A stretch of DNA of 64,000 nt, from the NCBI GenBank assembly GCA_021796225.1, contig JAJYOL010000005.1, positions 597-64,596 of the forward strand, in the 5' to 3' direction. The DNA comes from Candidatus Micrarchaeota archaeon. Lineage in GTDB: Archaea; Micrarchaeota; Micrarchaeia; Micrarchaeales; CABMGC01. Numbering within the stretch: the stretch's first letter is position 1; every line of letters starts with the position of its first letter. Positions 14,828 through 42,941 of this stretch are shown piece by piece. The notes beneath the pieces are model-generated. The model ran no database searches. It was given only the letters and a program-made list of their open reading frames with translations, and was not told the origin of the DNA. A program made the position numbers and the translations under genes.

Positions 14828-15700
14828 TTATGGTGAGACGTATTCGCCTTGCCATGTGGCGCTATATCGAACGTCATATGGCACCCCGTCATTATTATTG
14901 CCGCTGTAGTCTTCAGCATTTCCATTCAAAGGCCACCAGCCTATGAGATGTTGCAGGTCTGTAGGCACGCCTCCGATACCTTCATTGTAGAGTGCGCTTA
15001 CGTCGTTAGCGGTTAACGACGCATTGTATATTTGAACGTTTGCTATTGAAAAGGACGCATTTCCAGCCATGCCAATGAACAGATCGCCATTTGCATTATT
15101 GAATGACATGTTTCCAGAGAGTGTTCCCTTATACGCCTGAACGCCGTTTACGTACGTATAAATGGAATTTGCAGAGGAATTGTACGTTCCGGTATAATAC
15201 TGCCATTTGTTTAACGTTGCGCTCGGAGTGACGGTAATCCACGCCTGTCCGTTTGGAGTAATTATGGACCAGATAATCTCCAAGCTGTTAGGATTCATAT
15301 ACATGAAATATTGGCTGTTTATGTGTTTGCCCACCATAACGGGAAACTGCCCTGCACCAGTGGCGGAAAAGGTATTCATCCAGAAGGATACTGTAACCGT
15401 CTGGGTCGGATTCAGCATTAATGAATTTGCAACCGTAACATATCCAGTTCTGTCAAATTGCGCAACATATTGTGGTAGTTCACCACTGCAAACCCCTTCA
15501 AGATTTATATCGTAATTTGTTCCGGGACCATTGGGACGGAATACTTGGCACGAACCAGGAGACGCCTTAGGCGCAAAGTTCGAAGGACTGAAAATTCCTA
15601 GAGAATACAAAACACCTAGGACGACCGCAATGACTAGTATCGCCCATCCGTAGGTCATGAGGTATTCCGTTGCAGATTGGAGTTTTGATCCCATATTCAT
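14828..15700 (-). CDS. pilin-like LamG domain protein, paralog C
   Basis: MNMGSKLQSATEYLMTYGW...; VTVSFW, TYVNG, NVQIYN, GWWPLNGNAEDYSG; ATG 15700 chosen by homology to paralog A. Confidence 0.85.
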   Translation of the reverse strand: MNMGSKLQSATEYLMTYGWAILVIAVVLGVLYSLGIFSPSNFAPKASPGSCQVFRPNGPGTNYDINLEGVCSGELPQYVAQFDRTGYVTVANSLMLNPTQTVTVSFWMNTFSATGAGQFPVMVGKHINSQYFMYMNPNSLEIIWSIITPNGQAWITVTPSATLNKWQYYTGTYNSSANSIYTYVNGVQAYKGTLSGNMSFNNANGDLFIGMAGNASFSIANVQIYNASLTANDVSALYNEGIGGVPTDLQHLIGWWPLNGNAEDYSGNNNDGVPYDVRYSATWQGEYVSP

Positions 15701-15705
15701 CCCGA

Positions 15706-25305: not shown

Positions 25306-26499
25306 GTGATTATATTGGCTGACCAGCCTATAACTACAAGCATAGACTCCTTGGTTAACTACCTAAACGAGCATGGTGAAACCGACACAATAACCCTTGC
25401 CGCATTTCTTAAGGTGAGCGAGAGGACCGTTTCCGATTGGGCAGGGATACTGGAAAAGGCTGGCATGATAAAAATATCGTATAAGATAGGCAAGATGTAC
25501 CTTTCCAGAAGCGAGAAAAAAGGGGTTTCGGCAGAAGTTGAAAGGTCGATAAAGGAAATAAAGAAGAAGAATATAGAAGATGAAATCTCCGCTCAGCAGA
25601 TAACACTCAACAACATAACCGCTAAGATAGAAACATACAGCAAGACGGTCACGGATGCGGAAGGCATATTTAAACAGAAAGCAGGTGCGGCAAAGGAAAC
25701 GCTGGCGAAGCTTTCCAGCCTGGAAAATGAAATGAACAGGATGTCATCCGACATAAGCTCGAAGAAAGACAAGGTAACGCAGATGATCGGAAAGCTTGAA
25801 CAGGAAATGGCGACGCTGCAGAAAGATTCCTCGGAAACGAGCAACTTCAGCCAGGATATGGGAGGGGCTGCGGGACTCATGGTAGACATGATAAAGAGGG
25901 CAGGGGCAATACGCGCGGAAGTCGAGCAGGCGAACAAGGATTTTGACAACCTTGTAGAAGAGCACAGAAGGAAAATGAAACGCATGGAACTCGACATAAA
26001 GTCCGAGGTAATGTCGTTACAAGACAAGATAAACAGTGAAAGTGCAAAGGTGCATAAGTACCAACGGATGGTTTCAGATTACAAAAAACGGGCATACGAT
26101 ACCGAAAAGAGGATAAAAACCGTGCGCACCGAAATACTCGATTCCGCAATAAAGGATAGGGAAAACGTGCTGAGGATATACAATACCGCGGACAACGAAG
26201 TAAAAAAACTTGGACAGAACATAAACAACATGAAGAGCAGTTGGGGAGCGTTGTCAGAGTTCAATGGAAAATTGAATGATGCAAACAAAGGGATATCGGA
26301 ACTGCTTAAGGAAGTCGCCGATACGAAGAAGGCGCTTGATGATCTGTCCAAAGAAATCAGTGCAAATAAGAATATTGAAAATGATCCTGGTGCGATAGAC
26401 AAGGCGGACAAGAAGGCAAAACAGTTGAAAGACGTAACAGATACGCTTGTTGGAAAGAAGAATTCACTGCAGAAGGATGTCGAAGATCTAGGTTCTTAA
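25306..26499 (+). CDS. winged-HTH plus long coiled-coil protein, first gene of the pilus motor operon
   Basis: N-terminal ITTSIDSLVNYL...SERTVSDWAGILEKAGMIKISYK wHTH-like segment followed by about 320 aa of heptad-rich helix; non-ATG start. Confidence 0.65.
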   Translation: MIILADQPITTSIDSLVNYLNEHGETDTITLAAFLKVSERTVSDWAGILEKAGMIKISYKIGKMYLSRSEKKGVSAEVERSIKEIKKKNIEDEISAQQITLNNITAKIETYSKTVTDAEGIFKQKAGAAKETLAKLSSLENEMNRMSSDISSKKDKVTQMIGKLEQEMATLQKDSSETSNFSQDMGGAAGLMVDMIKRAGAIRAEVEQANKDFDNLVEEHRRKMKRMELDIKSEVMSLQDKINSESAKVHKYQRMVSDYKKRAYDTEKRIKTVRTEILDSAIKDRENVLRIYNTADNEVKKLGQNINNMKSSWGALSEFNGKLNDANKGISELLKEVADTKKALDDLSKEISANKNIENDPGAIDKADKKAKQLKDVTDTLVGKKNSLQKDVEDLGS

Positions 26500-26516: not shown

Positions 26517-28025
26517 ATGGCTGAACAAGAGAGTGCGGAAAAAAACGTTCTTGCTACGTATAGGCTGAATGCGAAGGGCCTGATTGCCGACGTAATCATA
26601 CGCGATAAAGGAGGCTTCGTAAACGAATACGAAGTCAGCATGCAGGGCATAGGAAACGCTACAAAGGTGCTGCTTACTTCACTTAGGCCGGAACTGCTTT
26701 CCATCGTCCCCATAGATCCTTCAAGAGTCGACGATAAGGAATACGAAGCAGAACTCATACTCAAATATACTGACGCGTCCAATCTTGTAATAAACAAATA
26801 TCTTCCCGGAACAACTGAAGCGGTAAGGAAGATGCTTGTAGCTTTTATAATAAACATGCTGCTGGGGCTTGGCGAACTTGAGGTGCCCCTGTCCGACGAA
26901 AATCTTGAAGAAGTTGCAATAAACGGATCGCGCGATATGCTGTGGGTATTCCACAGACAATACGGATGGTGCAAGACCAACATCGCACTGAAAGATGAAG
27001 AGGAAATATACGACTATTCGGAACAGATAGGAAGAAAGGTTGGCAGGCAGATATCAAACCTCAATCCCCTTATGGATGCGGAACTGCTTGACGGATCAAG
27101 AGTCAATGCCACACTGTACCCAATATCCCAGGCAGGAAACACGATAACGATAAGAAAATTCTCCAAAAACCCGTGGTCCATGGTAGCGCTGGTTGCAAAC
27201 AAGACCCTTTCGCTGGAAATGGCGGCTCTCACGTGGCTATGCGTGCAGAACGAAATCAGTCTGCTCATATCTGGGGGAACGGCAAGCGGGAAAACAAGCT
27301 TCCTCAACGCATTGGGAATATTCATGCCTGCAAACAGGAGGGTCATCTCCGTTGAAGAAACGAGGGAACTTACGCTCCCTGATTTCCTGCAGTGGCTGCC
27401 GATGCTTACGAGACAGCCCAACCCGGAAGGAAAGGGAGAAGTCACGCTTTACAACCTCATGATAAACGCGCTGAGACAAAGGCCGGACATACTGCTTGTA
27501 GGAGAAATAAGGACAAAGGAAGACGCACAGACGCTTTTCGAGGCAATACATACCGGTCACGCGGTTTACGGCACGCTTCATGCGGACAATGCAAGCAACA
27601 CGATAGTCAGAATGAGCAATCCCCCCATTAACATTTCAAAGCTGATACTCAATGCATTGGGAGGCATAGTTAATCTCTTCAGGCATAGACGACTCGGGGT
27701 GAGGAGGCTTCTCGAGTTCGGTGAAATGCTCGGCAGCGGGGACATATCCGTAATAGAGAGATGGGACATAAACAACGACTCGTTCGTGAAAATAGGCGAC
27801 ATGACAAGGCTTGCCGATACGATAGGACTTTACAGCGGCTTTACCCGACAGGAGATATCACAGGATATAGTAGAAAAAGGAGAGATACTCAACTGGATGG
27901 TTACGAACAAGGTATCGATGGTCGATGATGCAGGATACGTAGTTGCAAATTACTACAAGAATCCGTCAAAGATCCTTCAGGCTGTGAAAGACAACGCGGC
28001 CTTTTCCAAAAAAATGTTTGGCTAG
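26517..28025 (+). CDS. type IV pilus/Tad assembly ATPase (TadA/VirB11/ArlI-like)
   Basis: GGTASGKT, SVEETREL, ALRQRPD, GEIR, HTGH...TLHA. Confidence 0.93.
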   Translation: MAEQESAEKNVLATYRLNAKGLIADVIIRDKGGFVNEYEVSMQGIGNATKVLLTSLRPELLSIVPIDPSRVDDKEYEAELILKYTDASNLVINKYLPGTTEAVRKMLVAFIINMLLGLGELEVPLSDENLEEVAINGSRDMLWVFHRQYGWCKTNIALKDEEEIYDYSEQIGRKVGRQISNLNPLMDAELLDGSRVNATLYPISQAGNTITIRKFSKNPWSMVALVANKTLSLEMAALTWLCVQNEISLLISGGTASGKTSFLNALGIFMPANRRVISVEETRELTLPDFLQWLPMLTRQPNPEGKGEVTLYNLMINALRQRPDILLVGEIRTKEDAQTLFEAIHTGHAVYGTLHADNASNTIVRMSNPPINISKLILNALGGIVNLFRHRRLGVRRLLEFGEMLGSGDISVIERWDINNDSFVKIGDMTRLADTIGLYSGFTRQEISQDIVEKGEILNWMVTNKVSMVDDAGYVVANYYKNPSKILQAVKDNAAFSKKMFG

Positions 28026-28034
28026 GTGTAATGT

Positions 28035-28937
28035 TTGGACGAACCCGACGCATATCAAAATGTAGTGAATGAAATAAGCGAATTGGATTCAGGGCAGGAA
28101 CAGGCCAGGATAGTGACACTCAGCATGCAGGATATATTTGCAGAAGGAATACAGGTAAAAAAATACAGCTACGATGAAGCCGTAAATACGATAAACAATT
28201 TGTGGCAGTCCGCCCCTTCGGGAATGACGGAAGAGCAGAGATATTCGCAAAAACTTGCCGGGCCCATAAGGGTTGCGGACATAACGTGGATATCGAAAAG
28301 GATAGAGAAGGGAAGAAAGGGTGGCCCATTAGCCGCATTGAGAGCCGACTTGGACGCACGGGAAGCGAAGAAAGAAGCGGCGAAAAAAGCAGCAGAGGAA
28401 GAAAAGGCAAAACGCCGGGCTTTGAAAAAGAAACAAACAGAAAAGGTACAGGCACCGCAGATAGAGGAATTCAAACCGGAAGAACCGACACAGCCTGAAC
28501 CTGTAAAACAAGCCGCCCCTCAACAAATACCGCAGGAACCCGCACCGCAGCAGCAAAACGTTGCTCCACAGGTGAAACAAAACGTATTTGAAAGCGATAT
28601 CAAAAATGCGGCTGAAGAGATCAACAAGACGGCTCCGAAAGGAAACTGGTTCATGGACCAGATAACCTCGCACATAAGCTGGAAAAATGAACAGGATCTG
28701 GTGCTCTTGAACCTGTCTGTTCCGGAACAGATTGACGAACTCGAAAAGATAGGGCTGGGACTTGAGAATAATATATTTAATAAAGAGCAGATGAGGATCA
28801 TAGTTGAGGAAGTAGTAAGCCTGAAAAGGAAGTTGATGAGAAACAGGGTCGCGGTGGGATCTCAGACGGAGTTGGAAGCGCTTCGGGACCAGAGATTGAA
28901 TGCGGTTCTTGAAAAGTTGGGAAAATCGATGAGTTGA
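28035..28937 (+). CDS. hypothetical cytoplasmic protein with charged and Pro/Gln-rich linker
   Basis: Open 300-aa ORF tightly packed in the operon; TTG start after GGTG. Confidence 0.6.
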   Translation: MDEPDAYQNVVNEISELDSGQEQARIVTLSMQDIFAEGIQVKKYSYDEAVNTINNLWQSAPSGMTEEQRYSQKLAGPIRVADITWISKRIEKGRKGGPLAALRADLDAREAKKEAAKKAAEEEKAKRRALKKKQTEKVQAPQIEEFKPEEPTQPEPVKQAAPQQIPQEPAPQQQNVAPQVKQNVFESDIKNAAEEINKTAPKGNWFMDQITSHISWKNEQDLVLLNLSVPEQIDELEKIGLGLENNIFNKEQMRIIVEEVVSLKRKLMRNRVAVGSQTELEALRDQRLNAVLEKLGKSMS

Positions 28938-30035
28938 TTGGGAAGCATGGATTCGAACGATAATAATATTGTAGGATTTACAAAACCTAAAAAGTTCCTT
29001 TTCTTTAAGATTAAATCCAAACCGATATACAAGAAAGCGGACACGACGGAGCAGTCCGTAACACCGCAGGCGCCGCCCCAATCGCAAATGCCGCCTACGA
29101 TAGTTCAACCCCAACCACAAGATATCCCCGCAGAAATACCGCAATCCGCACCGCAGCAGCCGCAACAAAACAATAAGCAGACGATAACGAAATTCCAACT
29201 TTACGTGGCCAAGGTGGTTGCAAAGCAGAAAGGACTGGAAATGATACTGCGTGACCAGGGAATCAAAGGCGGACCGGAAAAGTTCGTAAAGAGAATGTTA
29301 TTCAGCGCGATAATCGTCGCCATAGTAATAGGCATAATAACTATGGTCCTGTTCGACAAGATACTGGCCATGAAGGTTGCGAATCCTGCACCAATAGCCG
29401 TACTGCTCGGTGCCGTAATAGCATTTGGAGGATACAATGCACTCTTTAGGCAGTTTCTGAGATTTCCATTCTCGAAGTCCAAATCCGAAGGGAAGGAGAT
29501 AGAAAAAGGGATTCTCTTCGCTGCCAGGGATATGATAATAAGCCTTAGGTCAGGAGTACCGCTTTTCAACGCCATGACGGCAGTATCTTCGGGTTACGGG
29601 GTGGCGAGCAAGGAATTCGTCAAGATAATAAGCCTGATACAGCTCGGCATGCCCATGGACCAGGCAATGGAGGAGATAAGCAATTCAAGCAGTTCCAAGA
29701 CATTTAAAAGAATAATGCTTCAGGCCAGCGTGAGCATAAAGGAAGGTGCCGATATCGTACAGGCATTGCAGGAAGTGGTTGACCAGGTAATGCAGGAAAG
29801 AGTCATAGAATTGAGAAGATACGGACAGAGGCTCAATGCCCTTTCCATGTTCTACATGCTTTTCGGAATAATATTCCCGAGTATGGGAGTAGCAGTGCTC
29901 ACTATACTTACGACATTCGTAAACGTGTTTACGGTAACGACAAGCTTTCTTATATTCGTGCTCATATTCATAGCAATACTGCAATTCATATTCATCATGG
30001 TAATGAAAAATTCAAGACCAATATTCAGCATGTAG
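28938..30035 (+). CDS. type II secretion F-family pilus platform protein (TadB/TadC-like)
   Basis: Two TMs, SLRSGVPLFNA...GMPMDQAM...GADIVQAL, C-terminal TMs; Pro/Gln-rich N-terminus. Confidence 0.88.
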   Translation: MGSMDSNDNNIVGFTKPKKFLFFKIKSKPIYKKADTTEQSVTPQAPPQSQMPPTIVQPQPQDIPAEIPQSAPQQPQQNNKQTITKFQLYVAKVVAKQKGLEMILRDQGIKGGPEKFVKRMLFSAIIVAIVIGIITMVLFDKILAMKVANPAPIAVLLGAVIAFGGYNALFRQFLRFPFSKSKSEGKEIEKGILFAARDMIISLRSGVPLFNAMTAVSSGYGVASKEFVKIISLIQLGMPMDQAMEEISNSSSSKTFKRIMLQASVSIKEGADIVQALQEVVDQVMQERVIELRRYGQRLNALSMFYMLFGIIFPSMGVAVLTILTTFVNVFTVTTSFLIFVLIFIAILQFIFIMVMKNSRPIFSM

Positions 30036-30044
30036 TGAAGGTTT

Positions 30045-31037
30045 ATGGCAATAACATTCGAGAGGCTCGTATCAAGAAGCGTCGTTACTTACGTCTCCGA
30101 AGAGTTGGACCTTGCAGGCAGCAAGCTTTCGGTAAACAGATTCTTCAAGATAGCCATTTTGGGGTTCTTTGCCATTTTCATTGCGGTTCCGTTCATAATG
30201 GTGTTCTACGCCAAATTCTCTGAGATTCTTTCTGTGTTCTTCGGATTCATCGGAGGGGTATTCTTTGAAATACTGCTTTACATACTTCTCGAATTCCAAA
30301 TCGAAAAGAGAAAGACGTTTGTGGAGAACATACTTCCGGATTATCTACAGCTCGTTGCCGCAAACATAAGAAGCGGCATATCGTTAGATAGGGCCATGCT
30401 GCTTGCGAGCAAACCCGAATTCGGATATTTCAAAACCGACATTGAAATCATGAACAAGCAGCTGTATTCAGGAGAAACGATGCAGAACGCATTGAACAAC
30501 CTGTCAAAGAAATACAGGTCGACGGTATTGCAGCACAGCATAAGGCTTATATTGGAAGCCGTCAGATACGGAGGCGCGCTTACAGATTTGCTCAATCAGA
30601 TAGCGAAGGATACGCGCTCGCAACAGACAATACAGAAAGAAATATCCGGACAGCTTTTCATGTATACGATATTCATAGCATTTGCCGCATTGATGGCCGC
30701 TCCGGCACTTTACGGACTTACCTTCCAAATGATAACTATAACTGACAAGGTATGGGCAGGCATACTTGCCCAAAATCCCGGCGGGCTTCCTACGGCAGGA
30801 TTGTCATTCCTCAAGCCAAGTCCTCCGCAGATAACCCCGGGCATGTATTATGATTTCTCAATAGTTGCAATAATAATAATCACTGGATTCGGTGCATTCA
30901 CCATATCGACGATTTCCAGCGGTGCGCCATTGAAAGGAATACGGTACGCGCCGTTATTCGTCATTGTGGGCATAGTGATATTCTTCATGGTATCCGCAAT
31001 AATAGGAGTACTGTTCTCAAGCATAGGATCTGTCTGA
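30045..31037 (+). CDS. type II secretion F-family pilus platform protein (TadC-like)
   Basis: LPDYLQLVAANIRSGISL...GETMQNAL...YGGALTDLL. Confidence 0.9.
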   Translation: MAITFERLVSRSVVTYVSEELDLAGSKLSVNRFFKIAILGFFAIFIAVPFIMVFYAKFSEILSVFFGFIGGVFFEILLYILLEFQIEKRKTFVENILPDYLQLVAANIRSGISLDRAMLLASKPEFGYFKTDIEIMNKQLYSGETMQNALNNLSKKYRSTVLQHSIRLILEAVRYGGALTDLLNQIAKDTRSQQTIQKEISGQLFMYTIFIAFAALMAAPALYGLTFQMITITDKVWAGILAQNPGGLPTAGLSFLKPSPPQITPGMYYDFSIVAIIIITGFGAFTISTISSGAPLKGIRYAPLFVIVGIVIFFMVSAIIGVLFSSIGSV

Positions 31038-31082
31038 TTATTGCCTGAAGGAGTGTAAGAGACTTGATGTTTGGTGATCACA

Positions 31083-31451
31083 ATGGAAAACGGGGATAAG
31101 CTTGTCGTGGTAACGACAAATTACGTGCCTGGTTACAAGGTGACGAAGGTCATAGGAGTTTCCTATGGTATAGTTGTCAGAAGCAGAGGAATAGGGGGCA
31201 ACATACTCGCAGGGCTTAAATCACTGGTAGGTGGAGAGATTGGCGCTTACACGAAAATGCTTTCAGAAGCACGGCAACACGCGGTACAGCGACTTGAAAA
31301 TGACGCAGAGGGTAGGGGAGCCAATGCAATAATAGGAATGAACTTCGACTCTTCGGAAATAGGACAGATGATGACTGAGATAGTGGCTTACGGAACTGCC
31401 GTGAGAATAGAGAAAGAAGATAAATCGGCCGAGCCTGTATCACTGAGATAG
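31083..31451 (+). CDS. YbjQ/UPF0145 family protein
   Basis: GGEIGAYTKMLSEAR, GANAIIG, AYGTAV. Confidence 0.92.
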   Translation: MENGDKLVVVTTNYVPGYKVTKVIGVSYGIVVRSRGIGGNILAGLKSLVGGEIGAYTKMLSEARQHAVQRLENDAEGRGANAIIGMNFDSSEIGQMMTEIVAYGTAVRIEKEDKSAEPVSLR

Positions 31452-31481
31452 ACAGCGGGTCTAAAGGCAGAAACAACAGAG

Positions 31482-34133
31482 TCATGGAAAACCTATAGAC
31501 TGCTGTTCATTCTGAATTTCAGTGTATAGGGAACTGAGATTAGAAGTCGTACTTCCAGAAAGGAACGGATAGGTCACGTTATAGGCAACACCATTATTAT
31601 TATTTCCGCTATAATCATTGGCGTTGCCATTCAATGGCCACCAGCCAACAAGATTTTGTGACTGTACCGGTTTACCAGCTATCCCTTCTTCAAATAGCTT
31701 ATGTAAAGTTGTTTCCGATAATGAAGCATTATACAATTGCACGTTTGTTATATTCCCAGGAAATATAGATCCATCGCATTGGGAGGTCTGAGTTCCTATA
31801 ACAACTAATGCATTATTTGTGTACTTATTCGCATTCGTAACGTTGGAACTATAATTGTCTAATTGGAAATAGTAATTAGGAGGATTTACACTTACTGCCA
31901 CAAAATGCCAATAGTCAAGGGACATAAGAGGTATGGAAGATTCCCACGTGTCTGCAGATGTGCAACGGTGGAGACCGATTTGATTTGAGATTGTGCTAAC
32001 TCCAGACCTAAAAAATTCCAATGCTTGATAAGAACCAAACCCAAAAAAAGGCATATTTGACGGCGAGTCCTTAGGCACATATACCCACATTGCAGCAGTG
32101 TAAGTAGTATTTGTACCTGCAATTTGTGGGACATTGGCAATTATTCGTGCATTGCTACTATATGATGTGGTTGCAGCGGTTCCGAGAATTTGTGCCACGT
32201 TGGTTCCCTGCCCACCAACTTCAATGGGAAGTGAATCTAATGTCACGTGGGGTAGTAGGGTATTTGCGCAGTACTGGTAGTTGGTACATGACATTATCCC
32301 GGGAATTGAAAATGCCATGGTGTTTGAAGTTTGAGTTCCGAATATGCTGTCTTCGGAATAGTTCCCGGGACGTGAATAGTTGATGTTGTGTGTAATGCTT
32401 GATGAGTTGGTACCTGAATAGTCGTTCGCATTTCCATTGAGAGGCCACCAACCGAAAAGATTTGGCGTATCTATGGGCAAGCCAAATACCCCTCTCTTGT
32501 ATATGGTTTCCACCTGCGTTCCGTTAAGAGACCCGTTATAGAGCTGTACGTTTGCCATGCTGCCGTTAAAAAATCGCGTGGTAAAGCCGCTTTGCATCCC
32601 GAATACCCAGTAATCAGAAGCAGACGTAACGGCATTTGTAGTTGATGGTATGAGTTGCCGTTCTCCGTTAAAATAGATAGTAGCATAAGTCGAATTCAGT
32701 GAATATCCTACAAAACTCCATTGGTGAAGAGGTGCAATAAAGTTGCTGGCCATGTTTGTTGTACGATTCCATAACAACAGGTGACCCGTTGTTGAGAGTG
32801 CGAATTGGTATTGTGCGTTATAATAGCCTCCGCCGTCGAATTCGGTTATGACTTCAAAGTTGCTTGTTCCGTAGTTAATCGGATATATCCACTGTAGTAC
32901 GGTAAGAGGATAGGCGAAATTACCTTTTCCCGTGATGTTGCTGTTGTTTCCATTGAAATTCGCAACTTCATGATTTGTGTTCAAAAAGGTAAACATGCCG
33001 TCGGGGGACGAATTGTACGTAGATCCTGAAGAGTATTGGTTGTATGACGGAGTGAATGGAGATGCAAAATAATACCCATTCATTATTTCGGATTGCAGGT
33101 TTGTTTCATTCATTGCTGCAAGGCGTGGTCCGTATAAAAGAATATTCTGGCCCGTCATAAAATGACTCAGATAACCGGATGTGCTTGCGTACTCGAGAAA
33201 CGGTATGTTTGGGATGTTTATCATGTTATAAGTCATTAAGCCCCCGAATTGTTCCGCTATGTCACATGTGGAATTGGTTATCTTAGTAGCATTCTGCGTA
33301 ATAAGTATTATCGATTTATTTACCGGCGAGGAGTCAAGCTGTGAAGGCACATAGTTGGAAAGAGGCAGTGCACCCGATGAGCATGTAACGCCGGAAGGGA
33401 CGGTAATGACCGTCCCATATATTATACCGGTGGAGTTTCCCGCAGTAGCTGTCCCATACATGGATATCGCAGGCTTCAATGGTTCAAATTGGATTGACTT
33501 CAGTTGTCCTTGTGACGCGTAGAGAATATCCTGCGTGCCGTTAAGAGGTATTGATACGTTTATCGGTAAATGGTAAAAATAGATTTCTCCTGTCGCATTT
33601 ATCTTTACATTGTATGTTACGGAAATGTTTAATGAGGAGTGTGAATCAGAACTTATCTTAAGCCCTGTTTGGTTTATCGTAACTACACGGAAAGTTGAAT
33701 TTGATATTTTTGCAAGGGCATCATCATATGAGGCAAGGGTCATGTTGCCCATTGCGGAAGTGAAAAAAGTATTTTGTGATGGTGTGAGACCTACCCCCGA
33801 TATCGTACCGTTGGCTATCAATCCGCTCATGTACGCACTCAGATTTGATATGAACACGCCTTTGCGCATCGACGGTGACAGTTCGAACGATGAAAGGGTA
33901 GATAGGGACCGTTCGGAGCTCATGAATAGGAACGTTGTTAATTCCGGACTAAGCATGTTTCCGTAATTCAGGCTTGTACTGGAAATTGCGACTTTCTGAC
34001 CGATGTTTTGATAGTTTACTTCTTCGACTACGAATATCATCAGTATAGACAGCATAAGAATAAACAGTATCAGAACTATCAGTGTCATGAACTGCGCTCT
34101 GGAATTGTTTAGTAGCAGTTTTTTCACTTCCAT
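31482..34133 (-). CDS. large pilin-like adhesin with two LamG domains
   Basis: RAQFMTLIVLILF N-terminus; Ser/Thr/Asn-rich; two GWWPLNGNANDYSG modules. Confidence 0.8.
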   Translation of the reverse strand: MEVKKLLLNNSRAQFMTLIVLILFILMLSILMIFVVEEVNYQNIGQKVAISSTSLNYGNMLSPELTTFLFMSSERSLSTLSSFELSPSMRKGVFISNLSAYMSGLIANGTISGVGLTPSQNTFFTSAMGNMTLASYDDALAKISNSTFRVVTINQTGLKISSDSHSSLNISVTYNVKINATGEIYFYHLPINVSIPLNGTQDILYASQGQLKSIQFEPLKPAISMYGTATAGNSTGIIYGTVITVPSGVTCSSGALPLSNYVPSQLDSSPVNKSIILITQNATKITNSTCDIAEQFGGLMTYNMINIPNIPFLEYASTSGYLSHFMTGQNILLYGPRLAAMNETNLQSEIMNGYYFASPFTPSYNQYSSGSTYNSSPDGMFTFLNTNHEVANFNGNNSNITGKGNFAYPLTVLQWIYPINYGTSNFEVITEFDGGGYYNAQYQFALSTTGHLLLWNRTTNMASNFIAPLHQWSFVGYSLNSTYATIYFNGERQLIPSTTNAVTSASDYWVFGMQSGFTTRFFNGSMANVQLYNGSLNGTQVETIYKRGVFGLPIDTPNLFGWWPLNGNANDYSGTNSSSITHNINYSRPGNYSEDSIFGTQTSNTMAFSIPGIMSCTNYQYCANTLLPHVTLDSLPIEVGGQGTNVAQILGTAATTSYSSNARIIANVPQIAGTNTTYTAAMWVYVPKDSPSNMPFFGFGSYQALEFFRSGVSTISNQIGLHRCTSADTWESSIPLMSLDYWHFVAVSVNPPNYYFQLDNYSSNVTNANKYTNNALVVIGTQTSQCDGSIFPGNITNVQLYNASLSETTLHKLFEEGIAGKPVQSQNLVGWWPLNGNANDYSGNNNNGVAYNVTYPFLSGSTTSNLSSLYTEIQNEQQSIGFP

Positions 34134-36253
34134 GAATACAACCCTATTTGATAGGTATTTTCAGCGTCTGAACTCTGATTCAGTGCGGGAACCATGGATG
34201 CAGATTTTGATACCTCGAACGACCCTGTCATACCTGGCGGCGTGTAATTCTCCCGTGAATATGTGACATTGAACGGATACGCTGCATTTGACAGCGGTCC
34301 GAAATCATTGAAACTCCCGTCGAGTGGATACCATGATAGCAGATTTATGTGAGATAGAGGTGCGCCCTGTATGCCACTTTTGTAAAGAGCCTCCGCCTGA
34401 TGTGACGTTAAAAGGTAATTGTATATTTGCAGATTTGCAATTGTGCCATTGTAAGCATAGGTGCTATTGCTGAATGTCAGATTGTTTATCCCTTGTATGC
34501 TCTCTCCAGATATGACGCCCGAATTTATGTTGGTTCCGTTAAGATATACATCATAAACCACGTTGGATCCGAAATTGCTTGCAGTGACGATAACGGACTG
34601 CCATCTGTTCGTCTGTATGGTATTTGAAAGGTCTATTGTATTTGCGGTTCCGGGATTTAATATTAATGAATTATTGGTGGAAAATCCTATGCGCCATGTT
34701 CCTCCAGGATTGCTGTCTATTGGAAACTGTGTTTTTCCCGTACTTCCTTTAGGATACAGCCATACGCTCATTGTAAGACCGCCCTGAGGAATAAAATTGC
34801 CTCCGGTTACCGCATAACTGTTTTTCCCATTGAAATTTGCCAGGCGCATGGAGGGCAATGCATATCCATCATAGAACAGGCTGTAATTGGACATCGGAGC
34901 AACGCTGTTGATAAGATAATCTCCGCAGCTTCCATCTCCGAAAAGGAACAGAGACGTAGCTGAAGAGAGTAACGATTCCGATGGATTCACGTTGCAAGCG
35001 CCGTATGCGAGTATCGTATTACCTGCTGACACGTAAAGCCTTCCGTATGCAAGCGTCATGTTGGGGTATATGTTTGGATACGGAATGCGCGTGTACCATT
35101 GCATTGCCCCGTTTGACATGCTTTGCGCTTCGATATATCCGTTCGACCATAATGTGTATATTTCACTGCCCCCTATGACAGGACTTGATGATGCCATTGC
35201 AGTTCCAAATAATGAAGATGCATTTGAATACCATAATACGCTTTTTATTGATGTCAAAACGGATACCCCTTTAGTGCCTTGATATACAGCATACGGCGAT
35301 GCGTACGCCACACCAGTAATGCCAGATGGAGAAGCGTAACTGTAAAATAACGTATTATTGATGTTGGTTTGGTTTGCAACGATGCCGTCACCGTACAAAA
35401 GCAGCTGCCCCATCGCTGCGATTTTTGATACGGCAGCTGATAATGGAGAAGCCCATATCTCAACCTGTTGTGACAGATGTTCGAGATTGGTAAATAAGTA
35501 GATATTTCTGCCGGAACCCGATACTGCAATCGATCCGTCGGCAATCGCTATTGATGTTGGATATCCGCTGGAAAGCTGCACGGACGACATCACGGTTCCG
35601 TTGTCCGGATTCATCGTGTAAACATAGCCGTTGGCAGCCCCGAGTATGAGTTCCCCGTTGTACAGTTTCAATGCCGCGGAAGGAGATGTCGATGAAAGGG
35701 CATTTGTCGTCCAAATCGTGCTCCCGTTATACGCATTGACAGCAGTGACGTTTGGTGAATCCCATATTATCACCTTGCCGGCATAGATTACGGGAGTGCC
35801 TTCGATATTATACGCTTCGCTCTGCGACCATAGCGACCTTCCGGAAGCGTTCATTGAAAATAATTTTGACCCTGCACCGAAGAATATGTCACCGTAATCC
35901 GCGGATATCCCCGTAGTTACTACAGAATTTACCGGGATTATTTCAGATAGCATGGATTTGTACGGACCATACTGATTATAACCGGAATTCCCCGAATCGG
36001 ATTGGAACTGTGTCCATGTCTCCCCGGAACCGTTGTATTGCGACAGTATGTCGTATGTCGTGCCGATGGTACTCGTATTTGCTAATGAAGACATGTTGGC
36101 CTCTGACAATGCTATCAGAACCTGTCCGGAATTTTCCGAACTTATTATGTAAGGCATTGGCGAATAAGGGTGAAAGAAAAGGAGGATGGACACGCCTATC
36201 GAAGCTATGACTATTGCGAACAGGGCATCAAGCGTAAATGTTATTGCCTTCAT
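34124..36253 (-). CDS. pilin-like protein with PQQ-type beta-propeller and LamG domain
   Basis: MKAITFTLDALFA N-terminus; AVNAYNGSTIW, TMNPDNG, SNGAMQW propeller repeats; C-terminal LamG. Confidence 0.8.
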   Translation of the reverse strand: MKAITFTLDALFAIVIASIGVSILLFFHPYSPMPYIISSENSGQVLIALSEANMSSLANTSTIGTTYDILSQYNGSGETWTQFQSDSGNSGYNQYGPYKSMLSEIIPVNSVVTTGISADYGDIFFGAGSKLFSMNASGRSLWSQSEAYNIEGTPVIYAGKVIIWDSPNVTAVNAYNGSTIWTTNALSSTSPSAALKLYNGELILGAANGYVYTMNPDNGTVMSSVQLSSGYPTSIAIADGSIAVSGSGRNIYLFTNLEHLSQQVEIWASPLSAAVSKIAAMGQLLLYGDGIVANQTNINNTLFYSYASPSGITGVAYASPYAVYQGTKGVSVLTSIKSVLWYSNASSLFGTAMASSSPVIGGSEIYTLWSNGYIEAQSMSNGAMQWYTRIPYPNIYPNMTLAYGRLYVSAGNTILAYGACNVNPSESLLSSATSLFLFGDGSCGDYLINSVAPMSNYSLFYDGYALPSMRLANFNGKNSYAVTGGNFIPQGGLTMSVWLYPKGSTGKTQFPIDSNPGGTWRIGFSTNNSLILNPGTANTIDLSNTIQTNRWQSVIVTASNFGSNVVYDVYLNGTNINSGVISGESIQGINNLTFSNSTYAYNGTIANLQIYNYLLTSHQAEALYKSGIQGAPLSHINLLSWYPLDGSFNDFGPLSNAAYPFNVTYSRENYTPPGMTGSFEVSKSASMVPALNQSSDAENTYQIGLYSWK

Positions 36254-36784
36254 TTATTCAACACCGAACGTCGTATTTGTCCATAAAATTATTTGCATCG
36301 TTGCTGGGGATCCTCCGACTATCACAGGGACAGTTGCCACTTGATCAGACATGGAGTGTCTGCCATTGGGATTAAGCCCCATGCTGAAGTTGAACTGTGA
36401 ATTGGATATTGTTATGTAGTAATCGTAACCGACACCCAATGCTTGTTTAGTGGATTGATAATTATAATTGGACATTGCCATCAGAGAAAATATTTTGGTT
36501 GTTGACATATTTAGGGGATTTCCGGTAGAAAGGCCCACGGTCATGTTGTCCCATGTTGTAATATTTGACGGGTTGATGATGTTGTTCCAATTGCTCGGTG
36601 CGCCTTGACCCAATAATTTTGCCTCGACCCCTTGAAGTTGCCCCATTATGCTCTCCACCCCATACCCGTTCGTTATCGCAAACTGATTGCTTACGTTATA
36701 CCATACGAAGGTCATTATTATTATCGCGGTACCGAATATCACGGAAGCGAAGATAGCATCAAGGGACCAAAATTGCAATTTCAT
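36254..36784 (-). CDS. minor pilin-like protein
   Basis: MKLQFWSLDAIFASVIFG hydrophobic N-terminus; GAPSNW; ATGA overlap with the upstream gene. Confidence 0.75.
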   Translation of the reverse strand: MKLQFWSLDAIFASVIFGTAIIIMTFVWYNVSNQFAITNGYGVESIMGQLQGVEAKLLGQGAPSNWNNIINPSNITTWDNMTVGLSTGNPLNMSTTKIFSLMAMSNYNYQSTKQALGVGYDYYITISNSQFNFSMGLNPNGRHSMSDQVATVPVIVGGSPATMQIILWTNTTFGVE

Positions 36785-39700
36785 GGATACCAACTCATTG
36801 GGATAAATTCGGATTGCGTCGGAGGCATCCCGCTTGAATATAACTCTTGCACCTGGAAATGCGTAAGTGATGTGTTGTATAGCAGCACGTCGGCTATTGA
36901 TCCGCCCCAGTGATAACCGGAAGATTCGCTCCCTATTGTCAGCGGATTTGAGGTGTATGCGAGTGACGTCGAGAAATTTGCTCTTTTTTTCTCTTCGCTG
37001 CCGTCATAGTATAGAACGGCCGTAGTGCCGTTATAGGTTGCTGTGACCATGTTCCATTGCGTGTCGACTTCGGCATTGGCCCAGGACAACGCCAATGCGT
37101 CATTTATGTAGAGATTTATAGTTGTATCAGAACTGCCGTTTACCCTGTGCATGAGTATGGTATATTCACCGCTGTTGAATACGCCTTTTGCGATTACCGC
37201 AGCGTAGTCTTCCCCTGTTGAAGAGGGGTATCTGATGCCATCCCATTTTATCCATGCGCTTACGGTAAACGCATTAGGAGCAAAAGAAGTTGATGTCGGA
37301 ATGGAAACGTTGCTGTTTGCACCATTAAAATTCAATCCGAACGAACCGTAAGAGTTGGACAGAACCTTGGGAGTAACATTGTAGTCTATGTAGCTCAGAG
37401 AAGTTGCCGTGCCGTTATCTGAATATGCACTATAGTCATTCGTATTTCCATTCAATGGCCACCATCCGATCAGGCTTGCCTGTGACTGCGGGAATGAAGA
37501 CGGACCTGAAAGGTACTCTGAGATTATACTCTTCGAATTTATGCCGCTTGAATATACCTGTACGTTACTCAGTGTTCCGAGGAAATTTCCGGCAATTGCA
37601 GCAGTTGACGTAGAATTGTAATTTATGGCGTTGTCAGAACAGGAATGGCTGGCTTCCAATTGTCCATCAACATAAACGGAAATTGACGAGCCGTTGTATA
37701 TCCCGGCAACCATGTGATTAAGACCGTCGAAAAGATATTGTGCGCCTTGTGCGGAGCAGCTCCCCCAAGTATTTGTAGACTCCTTTACCGTGAAATTCAA
37801 ATAACCGTTGTGAAGTCCGAACAAATACCCATAATTCTGACCAGAAGGCGTTTCTGCAAAGTATTCAGGGCTTGCTGAAGATTGAGTAACACTCGCATTT
37901 TCCCATAATGTAACCGCCACAAAACCAGAAGGCTGCAAAGCGGAGTTGTTTGCCACGGTTATTTTTGACACGCCATTCATTTGCGGAGTCAACAGAGACA
38001 TGCTTCCATAAACAGGTTGTTTTGGATTGAAAGGTGAAGAGCTTACATAGAAACCCGTACCGTTATTCCTATACGACGAGTAGTCTATCGCGTCACCATT
38101 CAATGGATACCATGCAGCTATGTCAGTAGTGACTAAAGGAGAGGCTCCTATACCTGCTTTGTATAATGACATTATTTGCGTTGAAGATAGTGAAGCGTTG
38201 TATAACTGCACATTTGATATGCTGCCGTTGAAATAAGAGCTTATTGCCGAGCATCCGCCTCTTGCGCCTATCTTCATGCAGCCGGCATTATGCGCCATCG
38301 TATTGCTATTCGCCGGGACGATGTTGTTTTCGAGTACTCCGTTTATGTATTGCTTCTCGTGAGTCCCGTTCCACGTAACCGCAACGAATGTCCATGTATG
38401 AAGCGGTATTGCCATCGGTGAATTGTACCATGCCCAATTAGGAGATATTGCAGATGAAAGATAACCGGTTGAGCAGGTGGTCCCCATTTCGTAAGAATTT
38501 TCCTTGTTTAGTATTATCCCTCTATCTGAAGGGCAGAGATACGAGTTCAGGTATATCCATGCCGACATGGTTATATAGCTCACGTTCTGCGCGTTTGAGC
38601 TGGGAATACTTACGTAGCTGCTGTAGCCGTTGAACTGTGTCGTAAATGAAGGATTGTCCCATGATGCATTGTGTATCGTTCCGGTATTGTTATTTCCGCT
38701 GATATCATATGCTTTCGAGCCGAAATTCGCATCTAAAGGTACCCAGAGTTTGAGATATTTTTGATTGGAGAGATTGCCGTTGAATGCCGTCGCGGTAACG
38801 CTTGCGTATCCGTCCGTTTTACCCTGGGTGAGAAATGCCCGTGCTATTCCGCTTGAATTGGTTTTACTGGAATAGTAAGGACCCTTGCTTGAAAAATTCC
38901 CCAACGAGGAAGTGAAGCCCACCAACGCACCACTTAACGGAGTCCCGTCCCGTGTTTTTACGAGTGCAGAAACCTGTGCAACGGAACCGAATGGTACGTA
39001 TCCGATTACAGATCCTTCTGATGATACACCAGTATAATCGTTAGCATTTCCGTTGAGCGGATACCAGCCTATGATTGAATTTGAAACAGGCGCACCGCCT
39101 ATGCCGTTGTTATACAGAGTCGCTGCTTGTTTTGAAGTCAGTGAAGAATTGTAGACCTGTACGTTTGCTATGCTGCCGTTGAACACGCGCGTGTTATTGT
39201 TTTCGTCTATACCTATCTGCAGTGCATGAGGCAATGACAGGGTAACCGGAGACCTCAACACGTTTGCATCTACAAGAACCCCATTCACATACGCATTTGA
39301 AAGATAGCTGCTTCCCGAACCGTTATATGTAACCACTATGTTTGTCCATTTTTGATTCGGTATCCCGAATTCCATATCTCCTGTGGTGCCTGCGACGCTC
39401 GGATCCACCCAGAAGTCTGCAATCGTCTGGCTCGCGGACAACCCCCAGCCGTATGCACCGTTGTTTGAAGAGATTATGCCACAGTACACGCTGCTTTGAC
39501 ATGGGCCTGCCGTGTACACCCAGACGGATACCGAAAAGTTCTCGTGAAGCGTATTTGACGGGTACGTGAGAGTGGTGTTAATATTGCCGAGATTGCCGTT
39601 GAAGGCAGGCGCAAGATACGTCTTCGATGAGACACTTATGCTTCCCGACGCATTGTCGAGATTCGGACATGCGTAGTCTATGCAAATGTTTCCGTTCGAA

Positions 39701-40116
39701 TTTGTTATTGTCAGGGTACCGTTAGTTATTGGTATGCTGTACATTTCAGGATTACTCGGAACAACGAAGGAAGGATTCGATGCTATTTCGTCCGCAAGGC
39801 TGAATGCCACCGCGGTAAGCACCTGTTTTGCTATGCTCGATGAAACAAATACTTCACCATTCTCAGTTACATTCAACGAATAGTACTCTATGGTACCGCT
39901 TTCCGGAAGCTGAAACGTATATGTGTAACCATTGCCTGCTTGAGCTGCGGTGTTAAGCTCGCTTGCTATATCCTGGGAAACGAGCTGCAAATGTGAATTC
40001 AACTGGTCATTGAGAACAGATGCACGTTGATTTGCTATGGTAACGAATATAACCGAAAAGAGTAAGATTACAAATGCGAATATCACCATATATTCCAATG
40101 CGATTTGTAACTTCAT
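36781..40116 (-). CDS. giant pilin-like adhesin: pilin N-terminus, LamG, Big_1 Ig-like domain, three further LamG domains
   Basis: MKLQIALEYMVIF; DGTPLSGALVGF...TNSSGIA invasin-type Ig motif; four LamG repeats. Confidence 0.82.
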   Translation of the reverse strand: MKLQIALEYMVIFAFVILLFSVIFVTIANQRASVLNDQLNSHLQLVSQDIASELNTAAQAGNGYTYTFQLPESGTIEYYSLNVTENGEVFVSSSIAKQVLTAVAFSLADEIASNPSFVVPSNPEMYSIPITNGTLTITNSNGNICIDYACPNLDNASGSISVSSKTYLAPAFNGNLGNINTTLTYPSNTLHENFSVSVWVYTAGPCQSSVYCGIISSNNGAYGWGLSASQTIADFWVDPSVAGTTGDMEFGIPNQKWTNIVVTYNGSGSSYLSNAYVNGVLVDANVLRSPVTLSLPHALQIGIDENNNTRVFNGSIANVQVYNSSLTSKQAATLYNNGIGGAPVSNSIIGWYPLNGNANDYTGVSSEGSVIGYVPFGSVAQVSALVKTRDGTPLSGALVGFTSSLGNFSSKGPYYSSKTNSSGIARAFLTQGKTDGYASVTATAFNGNLSNQKYLKLWVPLDANFGSKAYDISGNNNTGTIHNASWDNPSFTTQFNGYSSYVSIPSSNAQNVSYITMSAWIYLNSYLCPSDRGIILNKENSYEMGTTCSTGYLSSAISPNWAWYNSPMAIPLHTWTFVAVTWNGTHEKQYINGVLENNIVPANSNTMAHNAGCMKIGARGGCSAISSYFNGSISNVQLYNASLSSTQIMSLYKAGIGASPLVTTDIAAWYPLNGDAIDYSSYRNNGTGFYVSSSPFNPKQPVYGSMSLLTPQMNGVSKITVANNSALQPSGFVAVTLWENASVTQSSASPEYFAETPSGQNYGYLFGLHNGYLNFTVKESTNTWGSCSAQGAQYLFDGLNHMVAGIYNGSSISVYVDGQLEASHSCSDNAINYNSTSTAAIAGNFLGTLSNVQVYSSGINSKSIISEYLSGPSSFPQSQASLIGWWPLNGNTNDYSAYSDNGTATSLSYIDYNVTPKVLSNSYGSFGLNFNGANSNVSIPTSTSFAPNAFTVSAWIKWDGIRYPSSTGEDYAAVIAKGVFNSGEYTILMHRVNGSSDTTINLYINDALALSWANAEVDTQWNMVTATYNGTTAVLYYDGSEEKKRANFSTSLAYTSNPLTIGSESSGYHWGGSIADVLLYNTSLTHFQVQELYSSGMPPTQSEFIPMSWYP

Positions 40117-40123
40117 GCAAACA

Positions 40124-40594
40124 CTATACTACAGGGGACATATACACGCACGATACCTGTGGATATGTAGGGCACGACGAATAAGATGTCACGTTTACTA
40201 GATATGTACCGGTTGATGTGATGCCCCCAAGATTACCGGTAACGTTAATAGGGGTATATGAGGTTATGTAGCTTAATCCGCTTGGAGAGCTTATAACGAA
40301 TATTATTTCGTGGCCGACGCTGTTGTTCGGCGTTCCGAGATATATGTATCTTATTCCAGGAGGAACCGATAGCTGCACGACCTGTTTTGCAGGAGGACCT
40401 TCGCTGCCTACAAGAGTTGCAATGCTCGCGAGCTTTCCCGATGCCTGCTGTGCCTCTATTGCTGAAAGAGATGAATTGGCGCTTGAAACTTGTATGAATG
40501 CTATTGTCACTATCGGAAGCAAGATGGCTAAGCCTATGGTAAGTGTTATCAGAAGTTCGAAGCTCGCTTGTGCTTTATACCTCTTCATCCTCAT
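40124..40594 (-). CDS. pilin-like protein
   Basis: KAQASFELLITLTIGLAILL class III signal (Q+1, E+5); start 40594 or 40588. Confidence 0.78.
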   Translation of the reverse strand: MRMKRYKAQASFELLITLTIGLAILLPIVTIAFIQVSSANSSLSAIEAQQASGKLASIATLVGSEGPPAKQVVQLSVPPGIRYIYLGTPNNSVGHEIIFVISSPSGLSYITSYTPINVTGNLGGITSTGTYLVNVTSYSSCPTYPQVSCVYMSPVV

Positions 40595-41996: not shown

Positions 41997-42941
41997 ATGG
42001 CATTGATTATAAAAACCATCAAAGGAAGGCATTACTATTATTCATTTCTAAGTTATCGCTTATTAGCTAATCCAAAGAGTTTTAGCAGATACATTGGAAT
42101 AATAAGACCGTCAAAGGGCAGGTTGGAGCAAGTGGAAAATAAATTTAAGGATGATTTGATTCTGCGGCTCTACGGCAAGAGTTATTCCTCAGAACTTATC
42201 TCTAAAGACGATGTTATCAAAACCATGCTGTTTAGTCAATTATTTGCCAAGAAGTATAAGTCACTTAAAGAATCGTTCAAAAGAAAATATGACATTGATA
42301 GGACAGTATCATTTGTGCTAACCACTCTGACAACAGAGGAGGTAGAGGTAGATTTAGCAGACGTTCGGAATGCCGTTATGAAGAATTCAGGGTTAACAGA
42401 ACGTGAACGAATAAGCAAAAACATGCTCCAGGCGGTTGCTTCTATAAAAGAGCACCATAAGTTGAATATGAAATACATACTCAAGCTTCATGGCACAATA
42501 ATGGCATCCTTCAAAGACAAAAAACCAGGCAGGCTTAGGCAGCAGCAGGTATATCTAAAACGCAAAGGAGAACGGGCGTTCGGAGGCATAGAATTATCGT
42601 ATAGACCCCCAGATTATACTAAACTTGTAGGATTACTTACAGGATTTCTCGAATGGTACGATACAAGCACCCTTAACCCTATAGAAAAAGCCGCAATGGC
42701 TCATTATAAGTTTTACCGAATCCATCCCTTTCTTGACGGAAATAAACGCATCTGCAGACTCATATTTAACAAGATATTAATCGATGGCGGATTCCCATTG
42801 GTTAACTTATCGAAGAACAAAGAAGACTATTTTGAGACATTAGCAACTTCTGTAGAGAAAGGTGCCCCCGAAACGTTTGTCAGGTTCTGCCTTGAACAAT
42901 ATTATGTGCAAGTTAAAGAGTTTCTAAAGGATCAAGAATAA
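41997..42941 (+). CDS. Fic family protein
   Basis: HPFLDGNKRICR Fic motif; LHGTIM, PGRLR; basic N-terminal KTIKGRHYYY segment. Confidence 0.92.
   Translation: MALIIKTIKGRHYYYSFLSYRLLANPKSFSRYIGIIRPSKGRLEQVENKFKDDLILRLYGKSYSSELISKDDVIKTMLFSQLFAKKYKSLKESFKRKYDIDRTVSFVLTTLTTEEVEVDLADVRNAVMKNSGLTERERISKNMLQAVASIKEHHKLNMKYILKLHGTIMASFKDKKPGRLRQQQVYLKRKGERAFGGIELSYRPPDYTKLVGLLTGFLEWYDTSTLNPIEKAAMAHYKFYRIHPFLDGNKRICRLIFNKILIDGGFPLVNLSKNKEDYFETLATSVEKGAPETFVRFCLEQYYVQVKEFLKDQE

Follow-up and report, generated by a model that had tools for sequence, protein, structure and literature searches.

A probable type IV pilus locus with large modular pilin-like proteins in a Candidatus Micrarchaeota genome

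Introduction

Two type IV pilus (T4P) systems have been described in 'Ca. Mancarchaeum acidiphilum' Mia14 by Golyshina et al. (2017; PMC5498576), whose report also notes that LamG-like jellyroll proteins (arCOG07813) have expanded there to 18 copies, some of them tied to pilus loci, and suggests for them a role in host interaction. In the classification of Makarova, Koonin and Albers (2016; PMC4858521), clade 1 comprises the T4P of Methanococci and Thermococci, including the Epd pili of Methanococcus maripaludis. Outside the archaea, modular pilins of Streptococcus sanguinis that carry a lectin module form a tip complex with a subunit lacking Glu5 on top (Shahin et al., 2023; PMC9934059), and the same report places both GspK and S. 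sanguinis PilA, neither of which has Glu5, on top of their complexes. Here we analyse a locus resembling these systems in a stretch of 64,000 nucleotides from a Candidatus Micrarchaeota archaeon (assembly GCA_021796225.1, contig JAJYOL010000005.1, positions 597 to 64,596; hereafter the window), where a pilus assembly operon converges on an operon of five pilin-like proteins, three of which are large and carry LamG domains.

The means by which DPANN archaea locate their hosts and stay attached to them are still to be worked out, and this locus is the best-conserved candidate for the organelle involved, being kept across an order, present in the cultivated strain A_DKE and fast-evolving in its putative binding parts. 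The cultivated members of Micrarchaeota described so far in PMC5498576 and PMC8975820 are host-dependent, and cryo-electron tomography of a cultivated Micrarchaeon revealed thin filaments that, in the words of that report, 'could represent archaeal pili' (PMC11329633). Our search of the literature on pili and LamG proteins of Micrarchaeota and DPANN archaea, with the supplements of the key papers outside its scope, turned up no experiment that identifies these proteins as filament components and nothing relevant on pili of strain A_DKE; the main text of PMC8975820, on a Micrarchaeon co-culture, has no mention of pili, pilus, pilin, laminin, LamG or words in adhesi-. The locus type and the idea of a tip adhesin are already in print (PMC5498576, PMC4858521), and the gain of the present analysis is a refinement and not a discovery. 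[quoted passage not shown]

Results and discussion

Convergent layout and assembly machinery

Two gene strings converge between 25.3 and 41.7 kb of the window, according to open reading frame (ORF) calls (Table 1). The plus-strand operon, consisting of a coiled-coil protein, an ATPase, a 300-aa protein and two TadC-like proteins, encodes an assembly motor, and the minus-strand operon, in which a CBS-domain gene is followed by genes for proteins of 156, 1111, 176, 709 and 883 aa, codes for substrates whose N-termini are of the prepilin type. An earlier note, made by a model from the letters of this DNA, had an ATPase and two platform genes facing five pilin-like genes with overlapping or abutting stops and starts. 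The ORFs bear out this arrangement in position and size, and the junctions can be read directly from the sequence: TAG, 7 nt and ATG between the 156- and 1111-aa genes, an ATGA overlap between the 1111- and 176-aa genes, TAAATG between the 176- and 709-aa genes, and a 10-nt overlap between the 709- and 883-aa genes. Overall, we consider it very likely that this is a T4P locus with modular pilin-like adhesins, and we give a probability of roughly 0.6 to the whole explanation developed below, namely an Epd/Tad-like archaeal pilus of Micrarchaeota with a tip complex made by a quartet of proteins.

Table 1. Features of the pilus locus and of related genes. Positions are nucleotides of the window unless residues or another contig are named.
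Feature	Position	Strand	Remarks
wHTH (winged helix-turn-helix)/coiled-coil protein, 397 aa, cytoplasmic	25306-26499	+	weak MarR/DeoR HTH and SMC-like coiled-coil matches
Type IV pilus assembly ATPase, 502 aa	26517-28025	+	T2SSE, E 3.1e-33
Soluble cytoplasmic protein, 300 aa, low-complexity K/E/P/Q-rich middle	28035-28937	+	no Pfam match
TadC-like platform protein 1, 365 aa	28938-30035	+	one T2SSF domain, E 1.7e-15
TadC-like platform protein 2, 330 aa	30045-31037	+	one T2SSF domain, E 2.7e-14
YbjQ-family protein, 126 aa	31071-31451	+	YbjQ_1, E 1.8e-37
883-aa modular pilin-like protein	31482-34133	-	class-III N-terminus, helical/sheet N-domain, two LamG/pentraxin-like modules
LamG modules of the 883-aa protein	residues 390-587, 662-855		paralog-family HMM
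709-aa modular pilin-like protein	34124-36253	-	class-III N-terminus, 8-bladed beta-propeller at residues 102-418, one LamG at residues 471-673
LamG module of the 709-aa protein	residues 471-673		paralog-family HMM
176-aa small pilin-like protein (K-L/A/G then QFWSxD)	36254-36784	-	most conserved member of the quartet
1111-aa modular pilin-like protein	36781-40116	-	N-domain, four LamG modules, Ig-like insert at residues 380-450
LamG modules of the 1111-aa protein	residues 170-369, 488-691, 712-911, 926-1111		paralog-family HMM
156-aa pilin-like protein (MRMKRYKA then QASFE...)	40124-40594	-	ATG start; longest ORF 174 aa from TTG
CBS-domain protein, 380 aa	40575-41717	-	CBS, E 1.7e-24
Four ~300-aa LamG-headed pilin genes	11017-11961, 11966-12886, 14828-15733, 15706-16638	-	flank the 16S gene
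Archaeal 16S rRNA gene	13057-14543	-	pilin paralogs on both sides
Second type IV pilus locus, contig C1	7693-13531	-	503-aa ATPase, TadC-like proteins of 245 and 252 aa

The 502-aa protein is a secretion ATPase of the GspE/FlaI/CpaF superfamily, whose nearest solved chains are 2oap (archaeal GspE-like; E 7e-64), FlaI (3.5e-53) and CpaF (1.4e-44), and its match to the TadA family (4.7e-49) falls under the family cut-off. The platform is encoded by two adjoining single-domain T2SSF genes, both above the Pfam cut-off, the first of which starts where the stop of the 300-aa gene ends. Two half-size platform proteins and an ATPase resembling CpaF are likewise features of bacterial Tad/Flp systems. 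However, the ATPase is closer to archaeal 2oap and FlaI, and no Flp-family pilin (PF04964) was matched in this genome (assembly 82.7% complete), although the control matched in Caulobacter. The label of a Tad/type IV pilus locus in the earlier note is thus kept for the type IV pilus and dropped for the bacterial Tad system; 'Tad' here is a resemblance and not a membership. An archaeal cell needs no secretin.

The closest gene order is that of MIA14_0170-0177 in Mia14, a member of the same phylum, where a CpaF-family ATPase is followed by a one-gene gap, two TadC genes and a secreted component; this likeness is one of gene order and annotation only. The two loci differ in setting, as the Mia14 LamG locus was placed on a genomic island (PMC5498576), whereas the GC content here is 0.43-0.46 across the locus, like the rest of the window, and the flanking genes for LeuRS and an M50 peptidase are conserved across the order. 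The uniform GC and the conserved flanks argue against an island origin for the present locus. In comparison with the 18 arCOG07813 copies of Mia14, this genome has 31 head-variable pilin genes, and the published passages and table rows on Mia14 that we compared mention neither class-III N-termini on large proteins nor a member without an acidic residue.

Similarity to clade 1 lies in the ATPase with two TadC proteins, in a locus that encodes about five minor class-III proteins, in stand-alone multi-paralog major pilins, and in two large ConA-like proteins that were proposed there as PilY1-like tip adhesins (PMC4858521). The same survey links the DUF2341 domain to pilus tip adhesins. Unlike in clade 1, the large proteins here carry Laminin_G_3 and not DUF2341 (PF10102), which has no match in the five locus proteins, although it is present in some distantly related homologs of the 1111-aa protein. 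Its sole match in this genome is in an ORF of 1969 aa (C15:26105-26194), far from both pilus loci. Moreover, no EppA or FleN gene was found in the locus, again unlike clade 1, and the candidate shaft pilins are 156 or about 290 aa long against about 70 aa there.

Conservation of the locus among relatives

The window lies on contig C6 of an assembly of 789 kb in 15 contigs, estimated to be 82.7% complete. Its conservation was followed in two samples: 15 regions of 20 kb fetched around homologs in 15 relatives, from genus to order level, and the genome contigs of relatives scanned with the 176-aa protein, in which 125 relatives were confirmed and 80 loci kept. Most of these 80 loci are labelled Micrarchaeota, and one comes from the cultivated strain A_DKE, whose genome is complete. 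The labels of the homologs and the assembly size of 789 kb support a DPANN archaeon as the source of this DNA.

The whole convergent layout is kept in 12 of the 15 fetched regions; in the remaining three, the pair of 1111- and 176-aa genes is present with no ATPase or TadC gene within the 20 kb. Of the 55 loci in the contig scan that extend at least 8.5 kb past the 176-aa homolog on its downstream side, 44 have at least one large LamG gene and then convergent TadC genes, and in 30 of the 55 there are two or more large LamG genes before the convergent TadC genes. Directly upstream of the 176-aa homolog, a large LamG gene occurs in 55 of the 63 loci with at least 3.5 kb on that side. Because the convergent layout recurs in 12/15 and 44/55 loci, we regard the locus as core machinery that is kept vertically.

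Sequence divergence is distributed unevenly over the locus. The median identity to the window is 65% for the ATPase (48 relatives' copies), 51% and 57% for the two TadC proteins, 63% for the 156-aa pilin and 46% for the 176-aa protein, and it drops to 31-33% for the large proteins. Ectodomains at 31-33% beside machinery at 51-65% form the pattern expected of exposed binding parts. The 1111-aa protein has full-length homologs that are labelled Micrarchaeota, Micrarchaeaceae or Micrarchaeia where they are named, and a phmmer search with it against the PDB sequences gave no match at E 0.01. The 156-aa gene is single-copy and highly conserved (26 of 31 genomes, 41-90% identity); in the sister family it sits away from the locus.

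Prepilin-type N-termini and sequons

A short basic leader, followed by K-[G/A/L] and about 20 hydrophobic residues, can be read directly at the start of each of the five proteins, and both this reading and the conservation among orthologs give them a class-III, prepilin-like N-terminus. The 156-aa protein has KA followed by QASFE. Orthologs of the 1111-aa protein share Q-I-A-L-E, with Q at +1 and an acidic residue at +5 in 16 of 16; those of the 176-aa protein share Q-F-W-S-x-D, with D at +6 in 16/16 (Q4 and D9 of the protein are invariant), and those of the 709-aa protein x-x-F-T-L-D, with D at +6 in 10/10. The 883-aa family is the sole one of the five that has no acidic residue in the N-terminal helix (0 of 12 orthologs). 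Co-encoded minor pilins, one of which is without the acidic residue, are what was described for the S. sanguinis complex (PMC9934059), and the syntenic 1111-176-709-883 quartet has this composition.

The resemblance to PilA-PilB-PilC and to HIJK (PMC9934059, PMC8179133) covers the class-III signal peptide, the co-encoded set and the one member without Glu5. It extends in the case of PilA-PilB-PilC to a grafted ConA-like lectin module, in a set thought to prime assembly and to show its adhesive modules at the tip. The differences are substantial: S. sanguinis is a bacterium, the pilin moieties have no detectable sequence homology, and here three of the four subunits have a modular build, with as many as four LamG modules apiece and a propeller in addition, and reach roughly double the size of PilC (52.8 kDa). 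Only for S. sanguinis were glycan binding and complex formation shown; for the present quartet both would be predictions.

Curated models of pilins or class-III signals (PF04021, NCBIfam) gave no match, even at E 10 or 0.1. The pilin call rests on the motif, the context and the structural neighbours in the Atlas. The model of the 156-aa protein matches Atlas clusters of class-III-signal proteins with template modelling (TM) scores of 0.80-0.86, PF04021 being present in 15-40% of the cluster members, and the Atlas structure of the 176-aa protein matches DUF7287 clusters with TM 0.61-0.74. A BLASTP comparison of the N-terminal portions of these five proteins and the paralog family matched only the hydrophobic N-termini (best E 0.009).

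The many N-x-S/T sequons pointed out previously are indeed enriched in these proteins, at 2.8-3.7 per 100 aa, which is 3.5-4.6 times the genome mean of 0.81 and 2-4 standard deviations above shuffles of their own composition, but many other ORFs are equally dense; dozens of them, genome-wide, have 3.4-5.3 sequons per 100 aa. N-glycosylation of these surface proteins would be plausible. STT3/AglB was not found in this assembly (82.7% complete); among the 31 genomes searched, this one included, it was found in 15, and among 11 other genomes of the genus in three.

LamG modules, propeller and folds

Laminin_G_3 of Pfam lies above its cut-off in four stretches of the 1111-aa protein (E 1.2e-67), two of the 883-aa protein and one of the 709-aa protein, and a hidden Markov model (HMM) of the genome's own ~300-aa paralog family marks seven modules with E 1e-20 to 1e-40, in agreement with the previous estimate of about seven LamG domains. 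All three proteins thus have LamG/ConA-like domains C-terminal to the pilin moiety. The beta-propeller of the earlier note is likewise found in the 709-aa protein, with PQQ_2 above the cut-off (38.4 bits) and a fold match to BamB (8orr; E 1.7e-19, TMt 0.76). For the invasin-type immunoglobulin-like (Ig) domain that had been proposed, a signal is present at residues 380-450 of the 1111-aa protein, but it stays below threshold (Big_1 scores 28.9 bits where 34.9 are required; Invasin_D3 E 0.008).

AlphaFold2 models of the 883- and 709-aa proteins were built from alignments of 12 and 10 orthologs, respectively. The 883-aa model (pLDDT, predicted local distance difference test, 61; pTM, predicted TM score, 0.38) shows two jelly-rolls together with a long N-terminal helix and an N-domain of helices and sheet, and the 709-aa model (pLDDT 68, pTM 0.63) has a single jelly-roll beside its N-terminal helix and an 8-bladed propeller (pLDDT 75-90). 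The LamG jelly-roll matches 4dqa, a carbohydrate-binding protein of Bacteroides (Z 22.8, root-mean-square deviation 2.5 over 193 residues), as well as pentraxins at Z 20-22 and sialic-acid-binding CBM40 at Z 14-15; the match of the 883-aa jelly-roll to PilC of S. sanguinis (7oa8) has Z 12.5 over 153 residues. Because the fold alignments span the WPLNG motif (for example, residues 387-596), it forms a C-terminal strand of a module of about 200 residues and is not a separate element.

TafC, a filament subunit of the haloarchaeal Tat-fimbriae, similarly has a laminin-G-like domain at its C-terminus, which was placed at the end of the filament in a model (PMC11821415), although, as described there, these fimbriae are Tat-exported and are assembled by donor-strand exchange and not by a T4P machine. 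The NCBIfam TafC model matches the LamG modules in the LamG part only, with E 3.9e-21 and 75.6 bits against a cut-off of 410.

In the DNA run behind the window, a second contig of 283 bases has 24 differences from 31965-32247, which belongs to the C-terminal LamG module of the 883-aa gene, and many contig ends stack at 32413-32467, which is the WPLNG motif. The variant contig and the pile-up of contig ends indicate a strain variant or assembly branching across paralogs.

The 31-gene family of LamG-headed pilins

The WPLNG(NA) module is common to the large proteins and to four genes of about 300 aa on either side of the 16S gene, as the earlier note had it and as both the motif and the paralog HMM confirm; Laminin_G_3 is above the cut-off in two of the four. 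These genes are members of a set of 31 full-length paralogs spread over six contigs (C6, C7, C8, C10, C13 and C14), often in tandem, each of about 280-320 aa with its own start and signal peptide, and together taking up some 28 kb (3.5%) of the assembly. Their N-terminus reads KL then QSAMEY, and their near-identical stalk is QSAMEYLMTYGWAILVIAVVLGVLYSLGIF...

The family profile has a constant-variable-constant build. The N-terminal ~75 residues have a column conservation of 0.80-0.98, the hypervariable LamG core of ~135 residues one of 0.22-0.45, and the C-terminal ~75 residues, which include GWWPLNGNANDYSGN, one of 0.62-0.88; pairwise identity within the family is 35-58%. Identity at four-fold degenerate sites is 39% over the constant N-terminal residues and falls to 27% over the variable core. 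As these sites are nearly saturated, the genes appear to be old paralogs under purifying selection and not products of recent recombination. Gene conversion behind the constant ends is rejected on the same percentages. The exchangeable cassettes that had been seen at 11-16.6 kb are therefore not upheld, these genes being full-length members of the family with four-fold sites near saturation, although 'exchangeable subunits' remains a fair guess at function. The four genes near 16S are candidate alternative filament subunits.

Every one of the 31 genomes searched has members of the family; at E 1e-10 there are 5-42 matches per genome, a count to which modules of the large proteins contribute. 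Taking the 31 genes here and these matches across the order as a repertoire of heads, one could imagine a combinatorial recognition pilus, with a giant modular tip complex and dozens of head-variable LamG pilins on a conserved stalk. We regard this extension as doubtful. If it were true, the head repertoire would set the attachable hosts and become a genomic read-out of host range.

Proposed working of the pilus and rival explanations

In the proposed working, the prepilin peptidase would cut after K-[G/A/L], and the quartet would assemble first in the membrane and prime filament growth in the manner of HIJK or PilABC. The 883-aa protein may be the cap subunit, uppermost in the complex, because it alone in the quartet has no acidic residue in its N-terminal helix, and the 176-aa protein is proposed as a nucleator or adaptor minor pilin. 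Beneath them the shaft would polymerise from the 156-aa protein, a candidate core filament subunit, from the 31-gene LamG-headed family, or from the two together, and this would push the propeller and the seven LamG/pentraxin-like modules to the tip as binding surfaces, where the large lectin-like domains of three quartet members probably sit. The organelle might then attach to a host cell or to matrix, with a host glycoconjugate as its speculative ligand. The quartet detail, as analysed here, could about equally well prove right or wrong, and host-glycan binding by the pilus is a tentative suggestion that ranks below it. The lectin-tipped attachment pilus of an episymbiont that the earlier note proposed is reasonable in outline. 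The quartet layout, the acidic-less subunit and the constant-variable-constant family all yield predictions that can be tested.

Several points weigh against a pilus of this kind. We know of no pilin shown in a filament that comes near the 700-1100 aa of the large proteins. PF04021 (Class_IIIsignal) matches neither the 156- nor the 176-aa protein even at E 10. An A24 prepilin peptidase was not found in the assembly (82.7% complete), either with Pfam or by tblastn with the proteins of four relatives (none below E 1); of the 31 genomes searched, 28 have it, and this genome is one of the three without. Fold searches with the whole 883- and 709-aa models were filled by LamG and propeller hits, barely probed the N-domains and gave no match to GspH/I/J/K, which leaves the pilin moieties and the N-domain of the 883-aa protein (residues 57-390) without a fold assignment, and the N-terminal domains of the large proteins were modelled poorly (pLDDT 40-84). 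LamG domains bind proteins and steroids too, and a lectin role is one possibility among several. The expression of the pilus, its filament and its binding are here predictions from genes.

The main rival explanation is a bindosome-like or pseudopilus surface array, in which the same machinery would insert and process proteins that stay at the surface in a short pseudopilus or a lattice anchored in the membrane, their LamG domains and propeller capturing glycans or nutrients; the Sulfolobus bindosome is a surface array of sugar-binding proteins. The proteins are indeed very large for filament subunits, and the second, simpler pilus locus of this genome, with small pilins, could make the visible filaments. 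The ATPase resembles the bindosome ATPase BasE at the domain level (E 6e-36), but membership in that family fails with 124 bits against a cut-off of 1000. Since domain scans find substrate-binding-protein likeness in none of the five proteins, and a four-gene set with one acidic-less member is the signature of a tip complex, we consider the surface array unlikely. Somewhat less likely still is a genuine pilus with another job, such as adhesion to surfaces or in biofilms, aggregation of Micrarchaeota, or exchange of DNA or macromolecules. The ligand range of LamG domains is broad enough for this, DNA exchange through T4P was proposed in the discussion of PMC5498576, and biofilm growth matters for cultivating a Micrarchaeon according to PMC8975820. 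However, a domain scan of the locus showed no DNA-binding or uptake features and no competence-type genes, and the divergence of the ectodomains (31-33%) with the 31-member set of hypervariable heads fits changing, specific ligands better.

Very improbable, finally, is that the two operons are unrelated neighbours and the large proteins ordinary signal-anchored surface proteins. Such a chance association would account for the three of 15 fetched loci whose large genes have no ATPase or TadC in 20 kb and for the loci of the contig scan that are rearranged (L090, L096 and L098), and, as noted by Makarova et al. (2016; PMC4858521), the genes for pilin sets need not lie beside the ATPase/TadC modules. 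It is opposed by an arrangement kept in 12/15 and 44/55 loci across an order and by N-termini whose pilin-specific Q/E or D pattern goes beyond a hydrophobic anchor. The archaeal pilus with a quartet tip complex thus remains our preferred explanation of the locus.

Accessory and neighbouring genes

The 397-aa gene heads the plus-strand operon. Its protein, which combines a long coiled coil with a weakly matched wHTH at the N-terminus, is a possible regulator or scaffold, and a homolog lies upstream of the ATPase in 11 of the 15 fetched loci. The 300-aa protein also has a positional homolog between ATPase and TadC in 11 of the 15; it evolves fast (median 34% identity among relatives) and may be an accessory component of this pilus type. 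The YbjQ gene stands at the convergence point and has the same placement only in the locus of the closest relative; it is probably a passenger outside the pilus system.

On the minus strand, the CBS gene and the 156-aa gene overlap by 20 nt, the ATG of the latter lying inside the former, and the two adjoin in 37 of the 80 relatives' loci. The overlap and this adjacency suggest that the CBS gene is probably co-transcribed with the pilin operon and that its product is a possible regulator of it. A metatranscriptome from the same study (n=1) has no contig over 25306-41717 and is uninformative on expression. Just past the tRNA-Cys gene that bounds the pilin operon lies a gene for a Fic/DOC-domain protein (41997-42941, plus strand; E 6e-20). 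Elsewhere in the window, the 16S gene stands alone, with no 23S or 5S gene found within the 64 kb.

The second T4P locus encodes class-III proteins of 130, 446 and 132 aa, with no LamG. The 446-aa protein has 4.7 sequons per 100 aa, which is among the highest densities in the genome.

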